A stretch of 64,000 nucleotides of DNA, taken from positions 351 through 64,350 of the forward strand of contig JBILFA010000005.1 in NCBI GenBank assembly GCA_044351795.1, written 5' to 3'. Numbering within the stretch: the first letter of the stretch is position 1; the number at the start of each line of letters is the position of its first letter. The position numbers and the translations under genes were made by a program. Under the pieces are notes generated by a model, which was given only the letters and a program-made list of their open reading frames with translations, made no database searches and was not told the DNA's origin. This DNA is from Bdellovibrionota bacterium (GTDB lineage: Bacteria; Bdellovibrionota_C; UBA2361; OMII01). This document shows, one piece after another, positions 24,583 through 49,509 of this stretch.

Positions 24583-24722
24583 TCCCACATACTTGACCCC
24601 AGTTTTGGCTAGGTCGATCCCACATAACCGACTCCAGTTTAGGGGGGTCGGATCCCACATAGATGAACCCAGTTAGAGGGGGGTAAATCCCACATAACTG
24701 AACCCACTTTTAGGGGAGAAAG
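24583..24722 (+). repeat. Four head-to-tail 35-bp direct repeats (TCCCACATA-N9-12-CC(A/C)(G/C)TTT-AGGGG...)
   Basis: Units start at 24583, 24618, 24653 and 24688, each beginning TCCCACATA. The period is exactly 35 bp, and the array ends at the IS256 terminus. Confidence 0.9.
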
Positions 24723-26152
24723 ATTAAGCAACCTTCTTTCTGTAAATTGCAAAAGTATCGTCATTAGCCATAGTTGATTTCTGTCGTTGTCCCATGTGGA
24801 CGTAAGGCATCTTGAGCTGCAGCCAGTCCTCGTGAATCTCGATGAGGAGCGCTGAGACGAGCCGTAGGCAGGAAGCGGAGTTGGGGAAGATGGTTGCCAC
24901 CCGAGTTCGCCGCTTGATCTCCCGATTCACAAGCTCCAGCCCGTTAACCGTTCGTAGCTTTCGATGAAAGTCACGCGGCAGTGCATAGATTGCAAAGCAC
25001 TCCTCAATGTTCTCCTCGAGGAATCGGCACCACTCGGGAGCGGTCTTGTGGTAGCTCTCGATAGTGGCACGGAGTCTTTGGCGGGCTTCTTCCTTGGTAA
25101 CGCAGCTGAAGATGTCCCTGAGCGCCTGTCCGAGCTCCTCTCGCAGGTGTCGCTTGGGGATGTAACTCTGTGCGTTCTGTGCGAAATGAAATTGGCAGCG
25201 CTGCCAGGGAACGTTGGGAAAGATAGCTTTGCGCGCAGCCTTCATCCCGGCGTGATCGTCACTGACGACAAGCTCTACCCCGTGCAGACCGCGCTGAGTG
25301 AGTGATTGCAAGAACTCTCGCCAATGAACCTCGGCTTCCGAAAAGGAGGTTGAGACACCCAGTACCTCTCGCTGTCCTTTGAGGTTAATCCCTATGGCGA
25401 TGAGCACTGCATGATCGATGACCTCGTCGTTATGACGAACGCTCTCGTATCGTGCGTCGAGCAAGATGTACGGAAAGCACCCGAGCTGACGGGTTCGGAA
25501 CTTCTCGAGCTCGTCATCCAAGACCTTCGAGACCCTGGATACCTGGGTAGAAGATATGTCGAGCCCGCAAAGAACCTCGGTTATCTCGGTGACCCTCCTT
25601 GTAGAGACCCCATTTACGTACATTTCGGCTATCGCAAGCTTTAGCGCTCGTTCCGACCGGATTCCCTTCTCAAGGCTCTGAGGATAAAACGAAAGCCCGC
25701 GAACCTGCGGAATCTCCACCGTAATAGCCCCCATTCGGGTCTGTATGGTCTTAGGTTTGAACCCGTTGGCGTATCCAGTGCGATCAGGCGTGCGCTCATA
25801 CAGGTCCGCCCCAAGCGCCTCCGCCCGTTCCACCTTCATCGCTTCATTGAGAAGCTTTTGGAACACTTCCCGCATCGAATCAGTACCGTTCGATGTTACT
25901 AGTTTCAAAAGCTTCAGGCATCAGCGTATCGTTTCCTTTAGTCGAGGTCATCGTAAGCTCCTTCATCAGAGTTGATTTGTTGCAAATCAACGATGACCTC
26001 GACTTACTTTTCGTTCCGGAAATCCTCAGTCAGCGCCAAATTTACGCTCCCCGAGCTCCGCCGCGCTTCGCTTCGCGGGGGCTTTTGATTGCCCCCCGCT
26101 CAGCGCGGCTCCTTACCAATTCCGGAATTTACAGAAAGGATGGTGCACTATC
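24722..26152 (-). mobile_element. IS256-family insertion sequence (~1.43 kb)
   Basis: Imperfect terminal inverted repeats are centred on ctttctgtaaatt (24736-24748) and aatttacagaaag (26126-26138). They enclose a Mutator-type transposase gene. I saw no matching target-site duplication. Confidence 0.75.
24724..25908 (-). CDS. IS256-family (Mutator-type) transposase
   Basis: 394 aa. YILLDARYESVR, AIGINLKGQREVLG, LVVSDDHAGMK and WQRCQFHF are typical of IS256-family DDE transposases. Confidence 0.92.
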   Translation of the reverse strand: MKLVTSNGTDSMREVFQKLLNEAMKVERAEALGADLYERTPDRTGYANGFKPKTIQTRMGAITVEIPQVRGLSFYPQSLEKGIRSERALKLAIAEMYVNGVSTRRVTEITEVLCGLDISSTQVSRVSKVLDDELEKFRTRQLGCFPYILLDARYESVRHNDEVIDHAVLIAIGINLKGQREVLGVSTSFSEAEVHWREFLQSLTQRGLHGVELVVSDDHAGMKAARKAIFPNVPWQRCQFHFAQNAQSYIPKRHLREELGQALRDIFSCVTKEEARQRLRATIESYHKTAPEWCRFLEENIEECFAIYALPRDFHRKLRTVNGLELVNREIKRRTRVATIFPNSASCLRLVSALLIEIHEDWLQLKMPYVHMGQRQKSTMANDDTFAIYRKKVA

Positions 26153-26214
26153 AAAGGCGCTCCTATCGGAAACCTCACCTCTCAGATATTCACCAACATT
26201 TATCTAAATGATTT
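26152..26214 (+). repeat. 63-bp exact duplicate of an internal segment of the DGR reverse transcriptase gene
   Basis: 26152-26214 is identical to 28852-28914, which encodes KGAPIGNLTSQIFTNIYLND. It lies immediately next to the IS256 right end. Confidence 0.9.
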
Positions 26215-26453: not shown

Positions 26454-27131
26454 ATGATCAGCAATAATACTTCTCCTGTGGCGGGAAACTTTGATACCTC
26501 TTCTGGCTCTACCAATCTTGGCACCTCGACTTACGGAGTGGGGGTTACTGGCGTAGAGGACTGGACGAGCGTTTCTTTCCCAGTACCGCAAGCTACCGCT
26601 GCTCTCCCCGAGGGGACCATCAGCGAGCAGGTAGTAAGCAACCAAGGGTCGGGTCAAGCGATTAGCACAACCCACGGCTTTAAGCAGGGCAGAGCCCCCG
26701 ACGACACAGCTGCTATCGAGGTAAAGATTACAAGACCTAACGGGGAAGAAGTAACATGCCTACTCTCTGAAGGAGCTAAGGGTAAGGTGTACAGTCAGCT
26801 CGCGACCTATGGAAAAAAAGATCTCAAAGGAGCAACCCTCCTCACACACGATGACTTTAAGGCCGTGGTAGACAGTCTCTATAGCGCAATTAAGGGCTAC
26901 ACAGCGGTTAAGGACGCTCTCCAAACAGAAGATCAAGCTCTTCAACAAGCATATATAATAGTGACAGAAGGTGTGCGCAGGGCCGGAGGTTTCTCGTGGG
27001 CCAAATTCGATTTGGATAGCGGGGGTGCCGTTGTTGGTCGGCGCGTTAATGACCACGACCTCTACTGGCGCGACGGCAACACTCGCTTCTGTTGCGCTGC
27101 GTTTGTCTCCCCGCCTGCGGAATCAAAATAA
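26454..27131 (+). CDS. DGR variable (target) protein, small, VR at extreme C-terminus
   Basis: 225-aa ORF. The last 35 codons are the VR, and the reading frame puts every TR/VR difference in the first two positions of AAC/AAT template codons. Confidence 0.8.
   Translation: MISNNTSPVAGNFDTSSGSTNLGTSTYGVGVTGVEDWTSVSFPVPQATAALPEGTISEQVVSNQGSGQAISTTHGFKQGRAPDDTAAIEVKITRPNGEEVTCLLSEGAKGKVYSQLATYGKKDLKGATLLTHDDFKAVVDSLYSAIKGYTAVKDALQTEDQALQQAYIIVTEGVRRAGGFSWAKFDLDSGGAVVGRRVNDHDLYWRDGNTRFCCAAFVSPPAESK
27018..27122 (+). repeat. DGR variable repeat (VR)
   Basis: 105 bp aligning without gaps to 27593-27697. There are 13 mismatches, all where the other copy has A. Confidence 0.92.
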
Positions 27132-27227
27132 TTTGATCGTTGATCATTGGTTTCTTGATCCCCTCCGCAAGGAGGGGTTGGGGCCATTGATCATTGGTAC
27201 TTTGATCGAAAAATTTTCTACTTTAGC
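27126..27227 (+). repeat. Post-VR module: GC hairpin (27160-27177) flanked by five TTGATC motifs; copy 1
   Basis: The hairpin is cccctcc-gcaa-ggagggg. TTGATC occurs 5 times in about 80 bp. The module is roughly 90% identical by eye to 31475-31575. Confidence 0.85.
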
Positions 27228-27368
27228 CGCTTCCACTGGTCTGCTACCCTTTGAGTTACCTTGGGTAATGACAAGGCGGCTAAGGCTTCCGTGCACCTAA
27301 GGGCTGTTCCCACAGTAACGTCAGTAGGAGAAATCCGCTGTAACTGCCAGAGTCGTTGCGTCCCGATG

Positions 27369-27392
27369 AGAGGCGGCGTAGCCGCCTCTTTT
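27369..27392 (+). terminator. Rho-independent terminator candidate downstream of DGR target gene
   Basis: agaggcggc-gta-gccgcctct forms a 9-bp GC-rich stem followed by TTT. Confidence 0.6.
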
Positions 27393-27592
27393 AGATTCAA
27401 CGAGCGTGCAGAACTGTGATGGGAGCAGCAATTCTTGTCCAAGTCTCGTGAGGGGATCTTGTTGGTTGGTATCGGATGATACCAAGGTCGAAAAGCGTAG
27501 CTAACGGCACCGCAACCCCTCCGAATTAAATTCAACCGTGAGAACCGTGTAAGCGCTCAAATGGTGGTGGGTCCGTAAGGGCTTGGGCAAAG

Positions 27593-27697
27593 AGCGGGGG
27601 TGCCGTTGTTGGTCGGCGCGTTAATGACAACGACAACAACTGGAACGACAACAACAATCGCAACAATTGCGCTGCGTTTGTCTCCCCGCCTGCGGAA
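27593..27697 (+). repeat. DGR template repeat (TR)
   Basis: This is the invariant, Asn-codon-rich copy (..aat gac aac gac aac aac tgg aac gac aac aac aat cgc aac aat tgc..). It is not part of a credible ORF. Confidence 0.92.
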
Positions 27698-27773
27698 CTG
27701 CTGTCTCCCCCTTTTTTACCTCTGCCGAACGCTCTTTATCCACCCTCCAAGCATCCGCCTTCGCCCTTCGGGG

Positions 27774-28100
27774 CTACTGCGGACAGGTCCGTCCTATCTC
27801 ATCGAGCCGTTCTTGGAGCGAGACGACCTTCTTCAATGGAAGGACCTTTATATCGACTGCAAGTCGGATAAACATCCGCAGCATATCAACCTCTGCGGCA
27901 AGACGAGTCAAATTCTGCGCTCTCTGCTCACACGGGAGGTATCCCGCATGAACAAATCCCTCTAACATCTGAAGGGCGGTCGCCTCAACACGGCGCCAGA
28001 GGCTGTACCGCTCCATCTTGGGTATGCCTTTTTGTAGGTCGTGTAAGGCCCGGTAGAGCTCATACGTTTTGGCGATGATGGGAATGTCTAATTGCTGCAT
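27774..28100 (-). CDS. avd: DGR accessory variability determinant (Avd-like four-helix-bundle protein)
   Basis: 108 aa from the ATG at 28100. MQQLDIPIIAKTYELYRALHDLQKGIPKMERYSLWRRVEATAL...LDEIGR fits the Avd / 23S-IVS four-helix-bundle pattern (PKxERYxL). The listed longer ORF (to 28208) has an unlikely Arg/Ser-rich extension. Confidence 0.75.
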   Translation of the reverse strand: MQQLDIPIIAKTYELYRALHDLQKGIPKMERYSLWRRVEATALQMLEGFVHAGYLPCEQRAQNLTRLAAEVDMLRMFIRLAVDIKVLPLKKVVSLQERLDEIGRTCPQ

Positions 28101-28133
28101 AGTCCTCCTTCTGTGACGGTTTCGACTAGAAAT

Positions 28134-28303
28134 GGTCTCCAAAGTAGCTCCGTCGCGAGGGCAACGAGATGAGGAGCGAAACGAGGAAAGCGAGCGAAAA
28201 AACCGCAAGTGTATCCCCTGAGATACAGTGAGGATTTTTTCGTGAAGCTTGACGAAGTTGCAGCCCCATCTCGTTGCCCGCAGTAGGAGATACTTTGGAG
28301 ACC
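28134..28303. other. 170-bp bipartite inverted repeat (two perfect 13-bp helices) in the avd-RT intergenic region
   Basis: 28134-28146 pairs with 28291-28303. 28159-28171 pairs with 28267-28279. Together they enclose a ~95-nt purine-rich loop. Confidence 0.8.
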
Positions 28304-28324
28304 AGTTCGAATATATTCGACGAA

Positions 28325-29353
28325 ATGATCTCTCCCGAGCGCCTTTTTGAGGCGTGGTACGAGTTTAGGAAAGGGAAGGGGAACCGCTGCGACGTTCAAG
28401 AGTTTGGTCGGCACGCAGAAAAGCACATCTTTCGACTGCATCGTGACCTTGCTTCAGGAACGTATCGGCACTCTCCGTACGAGTCGTTCTTTGTGCACGA
28501 TCCAAAGAGGCGACACATCAGAAAAGCCTGTGTGCGCGATCGTCTCGTACACCATACGCTCCACATGACCCTACGCCACATCTATGAGCCACGGCTTTAT
28601 AGCGGTGTCTATTCCAATCGTATCGGCAAGGGTACTCACCGGGCGGTAAATGCGTTGCAGCGTGCAGTTTGGAAGGTGAGCAAAAACCTCACACACCCCT
28701 GCTGGGCGCTAAAATGCGATATCAAGCGCTTTTATGACTCAGTAGACCACGAGATCCTAAAAGAGACCCTGGCTAGGGTGATTCATGATGACCGAGCGCT
28801 TCTTCTCTTAGAGCACGTTATCGATAGCTTTCACGTAGAAGGTTCCGTTGGCAAAGGCGCTCCTATCGGAAACCTCACCTCTCAGATATTCACCAACATT
28901 TATCTAAATGATTTTGACCAGCACGTTAAACACGTGCTTCGAGTAAAGCACTATCTCCGGTTTGCTGACGATTGCCTCTTCATTGCCCCTCATCGACAGG
29001 AGTTAGAGGAGCTGCTACCGAAGATTGAAGAGTTTTTAGCCCTACGGCTGAAGCTTGCGCTTCACCCTGACAAGGTAAGCATACGGCCCCTAAATCACGG
29101 TATCGACTTCTTAGGTATCGTGGTGCATCCATTTCGCCGCACGCTCAGAACAACAACCAAGCGCAGGATGCTTCGAAAGTTGACCGAAAGGCACGGGGAG
29201 GCGTTTAGAGGAGAGATTGATTCAGACTCACTTCATCAGTCGCTTCAGTCGTATCTTGGGATTTTGTCACATGTTGATGGGCATGGGCTCTCCACACTTC
29301 TTAAAAACGGCTTCTTTCTGTTCTCTCCATACCGAGGTGGTATTGTCTCGTGA
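28325..29353 (+). CDS. DGR-type reverse transcriptase
   Basis: 342 aa from the ATG at 28325 (the listed ORF starts at TTG 28274). It has the IGNLTSQIFTNIYLNDFD motif characteristic of DGR RTs, an FADD catalytic box and N-terminal LFEAWYEFRKGK. Confidence 0.92.
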   Translation: MISPERLFEAWYEFRKGKGNRCDVQEFGRHAEKHIFRLHRDLASGTYRHSPYESFFVHDPKRRHIRKACVRDRLVHHTLHMTLRHIYEPRLYSGVYSNRIGKGTHRAVNALQRAVWKVSKNLTHPCWALKCDIKRFYDSVDHEILKETLARVIHDDRALLLLEHVIDSFHVEGSVGKGAPIGNLTSQIFTNIYLNDFDQHVKHVLRVKHYLRFADDCLFIAPHRQELEELLPKIEEFLALRLKLALHPDKVSIRPLNHGIDFLGIVVHPFRRTLRTTTKRRMLRKLTERHGEAFRGEIDSDSLHQSLQSYLGILSHVDGHGLSTLLKNGFFLFSPYRGGIVS

Positions 29354-29422: not shown

Positions 29423-29770
29423 ATGGAAGTTCTCCGAAAAGCTTTAAAGATCTATCAGCGCGAAAACGGAGATCTCCCTTTCGTGAGATGGATGAGGGGG
29501 CTGCGAGATGTCCGAGGAAAGCAAGCGATCGAGGCACGGCTTGCTCGTGTTCGTTTGGGAAACCTTGGAGACCATCGCCCGGTCGGGGATGGTGTCACGG
29601 AGCTGCGGTTCTTTATTGGTCCAGGCTACCGTGTCTACATCGGCCTCGAAGGCGATACCGTTGTGATCCTCCTTTGTGGTGGTGATAAAGGCTCTCAGGA
29701 TGGCGACATCGAAACGGCGAAAGCATTTTGGAAAGATTACCAGAGGAGCAAAGCGTATGAAAACGGTTGA
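29423..29770 (+). CDS. Type II toxin, HigB/RelE-superfamily addiction-module killer protein
   Basis: 115 aa. RLGNLGDHRPVGDGVTELRFFIGPGYRVYIGLEGDTVVILLCGGDKGSQDGDIETAK matches the addiction-module killer family pattern. Confidence 0.85.
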   Translation: MEVLRKALKIYQRENGDLPFVRWMRGLRDVRGKQAIEARLARVRLGNLGDHRPVGDGVTELRFFIGPGYRVYIGLEGDTVVILLCGGDKGSQDGDIETAKAFWKDYQRSKAYENG

Positions 29771-30062
29771 TTACGATGAGTATCTAATCGCAGAACTTAA
29801 AGATCTTGAATATGCAGCCGGTTACTTAACGGCCTGCCTCGAAGAAGGTGCAGATGTGTTTCTGGAAGGAATTAGAAACGTCGCCCTAGCTCAAGGCGGG
29901 ATGAAGGCTCTCTCCGATGCCACTCGACTCAATCGTGAAAACCTCTATGACATGCTCTCAAAGGAGGGCAATCCACGTCTCTCAAGCCTCACTACGATTC
30001 TCTCTCAACTAGGTATGGAGGTATCGTTCAAGCCAAAGATGCAGGGAACGGATGCGGCTTGA
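29757..30062 (+). CDS. Type II antitoxin, HigA-family addiction-module antidote (HTH)
   Basis: 101 aa from the ATG at 29757, overlapping the toxin stop by 14 nt. YDEYLIAELKDLEYAAGYLTACLEEG...NRENLYDMLSKEGNPRLSSLTTILSQLGMEVSFKPK matches the antidote family. Confidence 0.85.
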   Translation: MKTVDYDEYLIAELKDLEYAAGYLTACLEEGADVFLEGIRNVALAQGGMKALSDATRLNRENLYDMLSKEGNPRLSSLTTILSQLGMEVSFKPKMQGTDAA

Positions 30063-31440: not shown

Positions 31441-31575
31441 TGTTGCTGCGTCTGGCTCTCCCTCCCCGGAATTAAAATAATTTGATCCTTGGGTCTTGGT
31501 TTCTTGATCCCCTCTGAAGGAGGGGTTGGGTCCATTGATCATTGGTCCTTTGATCGAAAAATTTTCTACTTTAGC
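31441..31575 (+). repeat. Second copy of the VR-tail plus post-VR hairpin/TTGATC module, without an intact upstream ORF
   Basis: 31475-31575 is about 90% identical to 27126-27227. 31441-31474 is a diverged match to the last ~35 nt of the VR. The hairpin is kept with a C-G to U.G change. Confidence 0.85.
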
Positions 31576-49198: not shown

Positions 49199-49309
49199 GG
49201 CGGAGAGGTAAAACCACGCAGACGCGTGATTTTGTAATGTGGGGGAACCCTCGGCCACAGCGCACACTTTTTACTAATTGACTTCACACTAGTGATCCAG
49301 GTACGAAGC

Positions 49310-49475
49310 AGATGATTGCGAGCGCCAGGGAAGAACGGTGTAATTCCGTCGCGGTCCCGCCGCTGTATCTGGGAGAGCCCCCTCACACAAGCCCACTGTT
49401 CCGGTTTTTATGTGGAATGGGAAGGGGAGGGAGCGAGTAGCCCAGGAGCCAGAAGACCTTCTCGCAATGATGAGC
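49310..49475 (+). promoter_or_regulatory. Cobalamin (B12) riboswitch
   Basis: The P1 helix pairs attgcgag (49315-49322) with ctcgcaat (49461-49468). The conserved core is AGGGAA..CGGTG.AATTCCG..GCGGTCCCGCCGCTGTA...GCCCACTG...GGGAAGG, with a B12-box-like AGCCCAGGAGCC. It lies upstream of a TonB-dependent receptor gene. Confidence 0.8.
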
Positions 49476-49509
49476 CCGAGTATTCGGCTGTCATCCGGAA
49501 CGTACCCTC

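Follow-up and report, generated by a model that had tools for sequence, protein, structure and literature searches.

The window, by which is meant the whole 64-kb stretch of DNA that was analysed, carries a DGR whose genes and associated features are the following:

26454 to 27131, plus strand: DGR target gene, an open reading frame of 225 aa with the variable repeat at its 3' end
27018 to 27122, plus strand: variable repeat (VR), a 105-nt direct repeat of TR with 88% identity
27160 to 27177, plus strand: GC-rich hairpin CCCCTCC-GCAA-GGAGGGG, read directly from the sequence
27419 to 27593, plus strand: conserved motif of structured RNA adjoining TR on its 5' side, located by covariance model
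27593 to 27697, plus strand: template repeat (TR), the 105-nt repeat partner of VR
27755 to 27789, no strand assigned: indel of about 34 nt in the 3' end of avd, specific to the lineage, from alignment and translations
27774 to 28100, minus strand: avd (accessory variability determinant), a C-terminally shortened allele of 108 aa, Pfam bAvd PF22296
28127 to 28308, no strand assigned: palindromic (foldback, MITE-like) insertion of 182 nt, from folds and from alignment with empty sites
28306 to 28320, no strand assigned: small palindrome TTCGAATATATTCGA, which spans the right insertion junction in the alignment of relatives
28325 to 29353, plus strand: DGR reverse transcriptase (RT) of 342 aa, with its ATG at 28325 and a Pfam RVT_1 match (E=4.9e-20)

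The locus is a DGR, with adenine-specific differences between TR and VR, an RT, an Avd protein and a diversified VR all in place. The mismatches between the two repeats lie opposite TR adenines in 13 of 13 cases, and the GC-rich hairpin starts 38 nt 3' of VR, which is the classical position of the DGR target-site hairpin; a hairpin downstream of VR has been described as a feature of DGRs (Wu et al. 2018, PMC5758913). A non-coding stretch of about 460 nt separates the target gene and its VR from TR, and a Pfam search found no domain in the 225-aa target protein. Bdellovibrionota MAGs contain homologues of the RT with 80-96% identity, and the RT clusters with the DGR RTs of CPR, Patescibacteria and Nanoarchaeia at 40-53%; an exact look-up of the RT sequence gave no match. 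Three members of the target-protein cluster (225 aa) are identical except for the VR-encoded residues 199-213, and one target VR variant lies on a contig that carries an identical 108-aa Avd allele. This variation indicates that the DGR is still active, and that diversification of VR is ongoing.

The identification of the small reverse-strand gene as avd, which had been proposed in an earlier sequence-only reading of the region, survived a profile search (bAvd PF22296, E=5e-14, 53.1 bits where the cut-off is 40, covering profile positions 3-99 of 107). Over residues 1-104 the protein and the 116-aa Avd found in close relatives share 84-95% identity. The indel at the 3' end of the gene then shifts the frame, shortening Avd from 116 to 108 aa, with loss of MLGGWIKSVRQR and replacement of the C-terminal 12 residues; inside the indel lies a stem-loop, CCGC..GCCC-UUCG-GGGC..GCGG (27755-27782). 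A 9-nt match between this indel and the right arm of the inverted repeat (CCGCAGTAG) was considered, and no link between the two was drawn from it, such a match having a chance probability of about 3% by a rough estimate.

The same reading placed VR, TR, the reverse-strand avd, RT and the inverted repeat between avd and RT correctly, and described the arrangement, with avd reversed between TR and RT, as unusual. This description is not borne out: the layout is that of the published architecture B3, TR-(avd)-RT with avd on the reverse strand, to which 90% of the CPR set belongs (Wu et al. 2018, NAR 46:11, PMC5758913), and it is the rule within the RT clade. The coordinates of the window follow the B3 core order, and the related loci are arranged alike. 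In tblastn searches, avd lies on the opposite strand, divergent from RT and directly upstream of it, in all 45 related loci in which the two genes could be located. Their start codons are normally separated by 10-60 nt; the median gap is about 40 nt and most gaps fall within 10-173 nt, as compared to 224 nt in the window and in one relative, L060. In 33 of the 40 related loci with enough upstream sequence, an adenine-biased TR/VR pair was found in the orientation of RT, upstream of the avd stop. From the end of TR to the convergent avd stop, the distance in related loci has a median of about 22 nt and is usually within about 55 nt; close relatives have about 15-20 nt as compared to 76 nt in the window, where the greater distance is due to the indel at the avd 3' end. 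The remark that a long spacer RNA 3' of TR must run antisense into avd was correct, and holds generally for the B3 clade studied here.

The conserved motif immediately 5' of TR represents, within this clade, a strongly covarying structure of about 110-175 nt. A covariance model (R2), for which relatives supplied the sequences (96% paired cells, 23 of 23 pairs covarying), matched the window over its full length with 45.7 bits (E=3e-8), the match ending at the start of TR. P1 is formed by 27435-27446 with 27579-27590 and P2, which includes a large insert, by about 27451-27456 with 27516-27521; from 27522 there follow the conserved junction CGAAUUAAAUUCA, the P3 hairpin and GGUGG. A MAFFT-based pairing of GATGATACCAAGG in the window with the conserved 5' GAAGATACTTGG of CPR loci proved wrong, the covariance model placing P1 at 27435-27446. 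A 13-nt complementarity flanking TR (27584-27596 with 27730-27742), which resembles the 'cPRT Stop' duplex of BPP-1, was also not accepted, since it overlaps the 3' strand of P1 and its own 3' strand is avd coding sequence in relatives. Only one Rfam family, RT-16 (RF03019), gave any signal on the motif, with 27.2 bits in the related locus L015 and 16.5 bits in the window. The two share the core AUAAAAUACAG, followed by a hairpin and then GGUG, inside a long-range helix; the RT-16 gathering score of 50 bits was reached neither by the window nor by L015, nor by any of 14 further loci. The motif resembles RT-16 distantly, and is no member of the family by the Rfam criterion. Among the 'RT motifs', only RT-10 has been linked to a DGR (Weinberg et al. 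2017).

In the DGR of BPP-1 (avd-TR-Sp-brt), the RNA elements that bind RT-Avd and those involved in priming are all located within a 140-nt spacer 3' of TR (Handa et al. 2018; bioRxiv 10.1101/2023.10.23.563531). The position of the conserved structure in the present clade evokes the tentative idea, less probable than its negation, that B3-type (CPR-type) DGRs use a permuted template RNA, in which recruitment of RT-Avd, and perhaps cDNA priming, would take place in the structure 5' of TR. A terminator-like hairpin lies 5-24 nt 3' of TR in 14 of 34 loci, and under such a scheme the TR transcript of many members would end at a hairpin and U-run at the avd stop. Such a scheme would account for the antisense placement of avd directly behind TR, and for the acceptance of hairpin insertions like that of the window in the spacer between avd and RT.

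The inverted repeat in that spacer is more extensive than had been described. Both of the 13-bp helices reported in the sequence-only reading are indeed perfect (28134-28146 with 28291-28303, and 28159-28171 with 28267-28279); the outer one extends to 23-nt terminal arms (28129-28151 and 28286-28308, 91% identity), and the second to 16-nt arms (28159-28174 and 28264-28279, 94%). The purine-rich loop of about 95 nt said to be enclosed by them is no loop, since it contains a third nested helix (28195-28215 with 28222-28242, 76%), making the whole a near-complete foldback; its purine richness applies to the left half (70%) and not to the other (54%). The right arm, placed 22 nt before the RT ATG, does lie close to it, the perfect arm ending 21 nt and the extended arm 16 nt before 28325. 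The minimum free energy fold comprises 67 bp on each strand, without a G-U bias towards either, at -93.4 and -86.1 kcal/mol. In a comparison with shuffled sequences the fold goes far beyond chance (-96 kcal/mol and z=-10.7 on the plus strand, z=-6.9 on the minus strand), none of 200 shuffles being as stable. No Rfam match to the inverted repeat was obtained, either in a scan of the whole window at the gathering score or over 27100-28400 at E<=1. The small palindrome TTCGAATATATTCGA contains TATATT, a sequence that all close relatives share at 7 nt upstream of the RT ATG and that may represent a -10 box; a sigma-70 promoter scan of 27000-28500 gave no full match, and none in or beside the inverted-repeat unit.

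Comparison with relatives establishes how this unit came to lie between the two genes. Seven of them (L001, L002, L003, L027, L051, L053 and L062) have an empty site, with a 42-nt gap between avd and RT at the exact insertion point; in six of these, whose RTs are 80-96% identical, the alignment contains one clean gap of 182 nt with conserved flanks on both sides, L062 being the seventh empty site, and the gene coordinates of P0002 and L063 indicate further ones. The junctions GGTTTCGACTA|...|GAATATATT, set against the empty site GGTTTCGACCACTATATT, correspond to a net gain of 182 nt, and leave the avd Shine-Dalgarno sequence, TATATT and the RT ATG intact. TTCGA is present on both sides of the insertion, and a clean target-site duplication appears in no register. 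The comparison of filled and empty sites thus shows the 182-nt foldback to be a recent insertion into the 42-nt avd-RT spacer of the window lineage. Full carriage of the element is limited to this lineage and to a single relative, L060, a Logan run with a 95% identical RT, where the insertion occupies the identical site with both junctions intact and 97% identity (5 substitutions); its terminal arms are perfect over 18 nt. A further contig, L059, carries the element in part. Since the same insertion is seen in independent assemblies, it is real, inherited DNA. Between the window and L060, one of the 5 differences makes a pair, two break pairs and two are neutral, which does not amount to a compensatory pattern, two carriers being too few to give a covariation test any power. 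A different insert bounded by inverted repeats, of about 100 nt, lies in the avd-RT spacer of L014 and L015 and is missing from L040; between L014 and L015 the arms of this insert show a compensatory change of C-G to T-A.

Since neither the seven close relatives nor the other members of the clade have the 182-nt unit, it is not a conserved DGR component. Among the four explanations that had been put forward, this favours a MITE-like insertion, and speaks against a structured RT leader, a relocated functional RNA and a divergent-promoter operator, each of which implies such a component. With a probability of about 0.85, the locus is an ordinary CPR-type B3 DGR, in which the inverted repeat between avd and RT is an orphan, MITE-like palindromic insertion that is tolerated and forms no part of the DGR. 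The unit has the build expected of a MITE, being short and non-coding with terminal inverted repeats (180-182 nt, 23-nt arms), and its insertion is polymorphic among close relatives; an autonomous IS with matching terminal repeats was not found within the window. The single IS of the window, an IS256-like element (24725-26149), was rejected as its source because the terminal repeats differ, and a local inverted duplication of flanking DNA was rejected because neither half resembles other window sequence. No second copy was detected in the 64-kb window, the only part of the source genome covered (arm searches with up to 2 mismatches, which gave chance-level extras only, and blastn of the unit), in the fetched related loci (blastn of the unit), in viral contigs (0 matches), or in plasmid and phage collections searched in distant mode (0 matches). 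In JGI metagenome contigs, a 19-mer arm pattern gave 4 single-arm chance matches in unrelated sequence, and also missed the known carrier contigs, which makes the negative outcome on copy number a weak one. A concatenated six-frame translation of the unit had 0 matches among 5.8 billion proteins. The term 'mobile element' is thus suggested by shape and insertion polymorphism, and not by demonstrated membership of a family.

The possibility that the foldback was created by the assembler, as a chimeric artefact, draws on two short JGI contigs with the identical avd that stop at or inside the element, L058 ending 18 nt upstream of avd and L059 near the centre of the palindrome. It is nevertheless very improbable, given that L060, assembled independently by Logan from another run, has the insertion with its 5 substitutions and both junctions, and that no perfect run within the imperfect arms exceeds 14 bp, so that an assembler would not produce them by k-mer foldback. 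Scarcely credible is the proposal that the hairpin is a relocated spacer-type RNA, equivalent to the BPP-1 Sp or Rfam RT-10, which would recruit RT-Avd and prime cDNA synthesis: although the hairpin is highly structured and immediately precedes RT on the same strand, as does the BPP-1 spacer (Weinberg 2017; Handa et al.), it does not adjoin the 3' end of TR, the reverse-strand avd intervening, and has no Rfam RT-motif match. The empty sites in seven close relatives and its absence from the whole clade contradict such a role, and the conserved, covarying RNA of the clade sits 5' of TR. A retron msr-msd ncRNA was also rejected, in that the unit is a single co-axial foldback, as opposed to separate msr and msd stem-loops within a1/a2 repeats, has no Rfam retron match, and the RT is that of a DGR with TR/VR and Avd.

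A regulatory function is more probable than these, and still unlikely. In such a case, the hairpin would be a lineage-specific element kept because it is useful, either as a structured 5' leader or as an insulator that separates avd from the divergent RT. It could, for example, be a hairpin for RNase III or for translation control, or tune DGR activity as a cruciform or operator site. It does lie in the control region of two divergent start codons, which normally measures about 42 nt, has a very stable fold on either strand, and has been retained at 97% identity in two diverged carriers, while the DGR of the carrier lineage still diversifies; the unrelated insert of L014 and L015, with its compensatory arm change, lies in the same spacer. 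Against this, the nearest relatives have equally intact DGRs and no hairpin, the 5 substitutions between carriers lack a pair-preserving pattern, no promoter-like site turned up within the unit in the scan, and two insertions among about 46 loci do not exceed what would be expected of intergenic DNA that tolerates insertion.

On the favoured reading of a tolerated insertion, the nearly perfect 182-nt foldback of foreign DNA that entered the 42-nt spacer in the window lineage is most probably a small non-autonomous palindromic element of MITE-like or ERIC-like type outside the DGR mechanism. It was probably tolerated because it interrupts neither the TR-containing RNA nor the structured 5' element of that RNA, both of which are found upstream of avd. 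The hairpin may sit in the 5' leader of avd, of RT or of both, and could alter their expression, which would be a side effect and not a conserved function. The gene order is thus a catalogued architecture, and the inverted repeat a private insertion of which nothing more has been demonstrated than the survival of the DGR. It is of value as a natural experiment, in which continued diversification of VR in the population is compatible with the combination of a 182-nt hairpin between the starts of avd and RT and a C-terminally shortened Avd. In addition, the location of a conserved RNA 5' of TR in a large, little-studied DGR clade provides a defined construct for reconstituting a CPR-type DGR.

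ERIC/IRU and Correia/NEMIS-type elements are MITE-like bacterial repeats of 100-200 nt, palindromic over their full length and non-coding, which occupy intergenic sites near start codons. By description, the unit is unlike them in that the searches yielded no second copy, clear target-site duplication or partner transposase; it resembles them in size, in being non-coding, in its terminal inverted repeats and in folding into one long imperfect hairpin, as well as in its intergenic site near start codons and its presence or absence between close relatives.

The DGR itself shares the order and strands of B3 (Wu et al. 2018), with target and VR, TR and RT co-oriented and avd reversed between TR and RT. 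It departs from the B3 CPR set in its host, which appears to be a Bdellovibrionota-like freshwater bacterium and not a CPR organism, and from its B3 relatives in the Avd shortened by an indel and the avd-RT spacer of 224 nt instead of about 42 nt. With BPP-1 it has in common the RT and Avd, the adenine-specific differences from TR to VR and the GC hairpin after VR. In contrast to the 3' spacer of BPP-1, TR in the close relatives ends about 15-20 nt from the avd stop and the conserved structure lies 5' of TR, which is a caution against carrying the '3' spacer' model of BPP-1 over to B3 elements.

A complete diversity-generating retroelement (DGR) occupies the region: a target gene carrying the variable repeat (VR) is followed by the template repeat (TR), the gene for the accessory variability determinant (avd) and the reverse transcriptase (RT). 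Its features and those of its immediate surroundings are as follows (coordinates; strand or location; description):

24725-26149; -; IS256-family-like IS with a 394-aa transposase ORF and 21-nt terminal inverted repeats (86%)
26454-27131; +; target gene, 225 aa, with the VR at its 3' end
27018-27122; within the target gene; VR, counterpart of the TR
27419-27593; +; structured RNA referred to as the 5' motif, ending exactly at the TR start (45.7 bits, E=3e-8)
27593-27697; +; TR, a 105-nt copy of the VR at 88% identity
27755-27789; avd 3' end; lineage-specific indel of ~34 nt (from alignment and translations)
27774-28100; -; avd, Pfam bAvd, E=5e-14, 53.1 bits against a cut-off of 40
28127-28308; between avd and RT; 182-nt palindromic insertion referred to as the foldback unit
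28325-29353; +; RT, RVT_1, E=4.9e-20

All 13 differences between VR and TR lie at TR adenines, and the assignment of the minus-strand gene as avd, made in the sequence-only reading, passes the profile search.

The same reading had presented this layout as unusual, a headline that is already known: in the classification of DGR cassettes by Wu et al. 2018 (PMC5758913), TR-(avd)-RT, where parentheses denote the reverse strand, is architecture B3, and it is the norm for the clade. A scan of the window RT against 185,579 species-representative genomes yielded 53 loci, with close relatives (80-96% identity) in MAGs labelled Bdellovibrionota, Pseudomonadota or simply "bacterium", and the remaining ones (40-53% identity) in Patescibacteria/CPR, "Gammaproteobacteria"-labelled MAGs, one Planctomycetota and one Nanoarchaeia. 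Both genes could be located in 45 related loci, and in each of these avd is directly upstream of RT on the opposite strand, with a median gap between start codons of ~40 nt, and often of only 12 nt. An adenine-biased TR/VR pair with the TR on the RT strand was present in 33 of the 40 loci with sufficient upstream sequence, and the TR ends a median of ~22 nt from the convergent avd stop codon. The sequence-only reading was thus right that a long spacer 3' of the TR would be transcribed antisense to avd, but with avd reversed and the TR close to its stop codon across the clade, B3 elements share this in general and the locus is not exceptional.

The foldback unit is a private palindromic insertion, without evidence of a role in DGR function. 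Alignment of the avd-RT spacer from the window and six close relatives (L001, L002, L003, L027, L051 and L053) reveals conserved flanks around a single clean 182-nt gap in 6/6 relatives, the spacer measuring 42 nt in these and 224 nt in the window. L062, whose RT is 86% identical, provides a seventh empty site, and gene coordinates indicate empty sites in the P0002 contig (90%) and in L063 (77%). The unit is found at the identical site, with five substitutions, in the independent Logan assembly L060 (RT 95% identical), while the L059 contig ends inside the unit and retains the left half. Filled sites in these two loci, together with the empty ones, indicate that the unit is real DNA, that it is inherited in a narrow sub-lineage and that relatives with 94-96% identity elsewhere are polymorphic for it. 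Its identification as an insertion is made with high confidence.

Both 13-bp helices described from the sequence are perfect, and they lengthen to arms of 23 and 16 nt; the "95-nt loop" that they were thought to enclose is mostly paired, because a third helix is nested between them, making the unit a foldback ~180 nt long. Folding gives -96 kcal/mol on the + strand (z=-10.7) and z=-6.9 on the - strand, the 180-nt core forms 67 bp on each strand, and G-U pairs favour neither. Among the five substitutions that separate the window from L060, one adds a pair, two disrupt a pair and two are neutral, so that pairing is not preserved, and this pattern, along with the lack of G-U strand bias, argues for a DNA-level palindrome rather than a selected RNA. 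In shape (180 nt, non-coding, 23-nt terminal inverted repeats) the unit fits non-autonomous palindromic elements of the MITE/ERIC type, which it also resembles in folding back over its full length and in having known filled and empty sites. No register yields a clean target-site duplication at its junctions, and the IS256-like element, the sole IS in the window, has unrelated ends. A second copy was found neither in the window or the fetched loci, nor in viral contigs, plasmids and phages, nor in a six-frame peptide search of 5.8 billion proteins; JGI metagenome contigs returned only 4 single-arm chance matches, in a search that also did not return the known carrier contigs. The unit is therefore named an orphan MITE-like insertion, since its shape is MITE-like and no second copy appeared in the searched collections (a weak negative), and it is with moderate confidence that it is regarded as a mobile element. 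A different insert of ~100 nt, bounded by the inverted repeats CACCCYGTTAGAA / TTCTAACRGGGT, is present between avd and RT in two loci of CPR type (L014:1345-1497 and L015:2357-2529) and absent from a related one (L040:2113-2179); its arms are distinguished by a compensatory change (C-G to T-A). This spacer has thus taken up hairpin DNA at least twice.

The DGR has apparently not been disabled by the foldback unit. The RT is full length, its start codon is the ATG used in relatives, and the insertion has left intact the Shine-Dalgarno sequence of avd as well as the conserved TATATT 7 nt ahead of that ATG. Three clustered target proteins are identical over 225 residues except at residues 199-213, which are exactly the VR codons, and one variant, P0156, is encoded on a 2111-nt contig carrying the identical 108-aa Avd allele, by which the VR variants are indirectly connected to the hairpin. 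The indel at the avd 3' end holds a UUCG-capped stem-loop (CCGC..GCCC-UUCG-GGGC..GCGG) and shifts the frame, replacing the conserved C-terminus MLGGWIKSVRQR with TCPQ and giving an Avd of 108 aa versus 116. The stretch 27716-27754, once avd coding, is kept unchanged as non-coding DNA directly after the TR.

The neighbourhood of the locus holds several other features. Positions 31445-31575 (+) repeat, at 87% identity, the 3' end of the VR together with the hairpin downstream of it and ~50 nt of flanking sequence (27096-27227). The end of this copy resembles the TR end of the relative L027, not that of the local TR; no intact ORF lies upstream, and a second DGR target that has since decayed is its probable source. 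The 63 nt at 26152-26214 (+) are 100% identical to RT-internal 28852-28914 (motif KGAPIGNLTSQIFTNIYLNDF) and may be a recombination or IS-associated remnant; the IS256-like element has its right end a few nt away, and the target gene begins ~240 nt downstream. One flank of the IS carries three to four 35-nt tandem repeats (24583-24716; TCCCACATA...). Directly downstream of RT lies a probable toxin-antitoxin pair (29423-30062, +), the second gene matching Pfam dnstrm_HI1420 (antidote), and in L062 (1233-1794) the RT is followed by the conjugation genes TrbC and VirB3; the DGR may travel on mobile DNA. A cobalamin riboswitch at 49303-49479 (+; RF00174, 84 bits) is unrelated to the layout and the foldback unit considered here.

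The part worth pursuing is a strongly supported structured RNA 5' of the TR in this CPR-type DGR clade. In every locus 270-540 nt separate the VR end from the TR start, with long ORFs mostly absent, and the conserved structure occupies the last 110-175 nt. RNAalifold analysis of 11 CPR loci yields a 12-bp long-range helix (P1) around hairpins P2 and P3, with compensatory changes at 18/23 pairs. A first covariance model built from these loci gave 30 matches in 522 kb, at most one per locus and with no other position listed, and where TR coordinates allowed a check, the match stops a few nt short of the TR. In the alignment of these matches 96% of cells are paired versus 37-46% with slid partners, double-sided changes occur at 23/23 pairs, and the covariation score is 0.92 versus at most 0.21 for slid controls, the alignment having been fitted to the model, which favours structure, a bias that the controls share only partly. 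A second-round model gave 41 matches, one in the window and one in each of 40 related loci, for example:

L014:716-822, L015:1741-1849, L001:516-616; related loci; 5' motif

Two unpaired segments are conserved, CGAAUAAAAUACAG in the P2-P3 junction and GGUG following P3. No Rfam family reaches threshold at the motif, the sole signal being RT-16 (RF03019), with 27.2 bits in L015 and 16.5 in the window versus a gathering score of 50; RT-16 belongs to the "RT motifs" described by Weinberg et al. 2017, of which only RT-10 was tied to a DGR (the BPP-1 spacer). Just upstream of the motif, L015:1693-1756 forms a hairpin (AGAGU-CGG..GUCAAGGC..CCG-AGAGU) that aligns with positions 1-47 of Rfam RT-7 (RF03028; at 27 bits and a local E of 1.6e-4, far short of the gathering score of 116.8), and RT-7 may be another relative of this RNA.

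On the other side of the TR, 14 of 34 related loci have a GC hairpin with a T-run, 5-24 nt downstream and at or close to the avd stop codon, against 2.3 expected from shuffles and 2 on the opposite strand. Carriers include L014, L015, L018, L021, L024, L030, L032, L036 and L048 (within 5-40 nt after the TR), and the hairpin overlaps or abuts the convergent stop codon; it is not present in the window and its subgroup. Its terminator-like form suggests that the TR transcript ends there, and its position recalls the Avd-binding stem-loop of BPP-1.

In the Bordetella phage, the RT- and Avd-binding and priming elements all reside in the 140-nt spacer 3' of the TR (Handa et al., bioRxiv 10.1101/2023.10.23.563531), and the survey of other DGRs in that work reached no further than 40 nt upstream and 100 nt downstream from the TR. 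Position and conservation suggest that in B3 elements the functional RNA may lie on the other side, and that the 5' motif may be the RT/Avd-recruiting RNA of the clade: whereas the functional RNA of the Bordetella phage lies 3' of the TR, the conserved structure of the B3 clade lies 5' of it.
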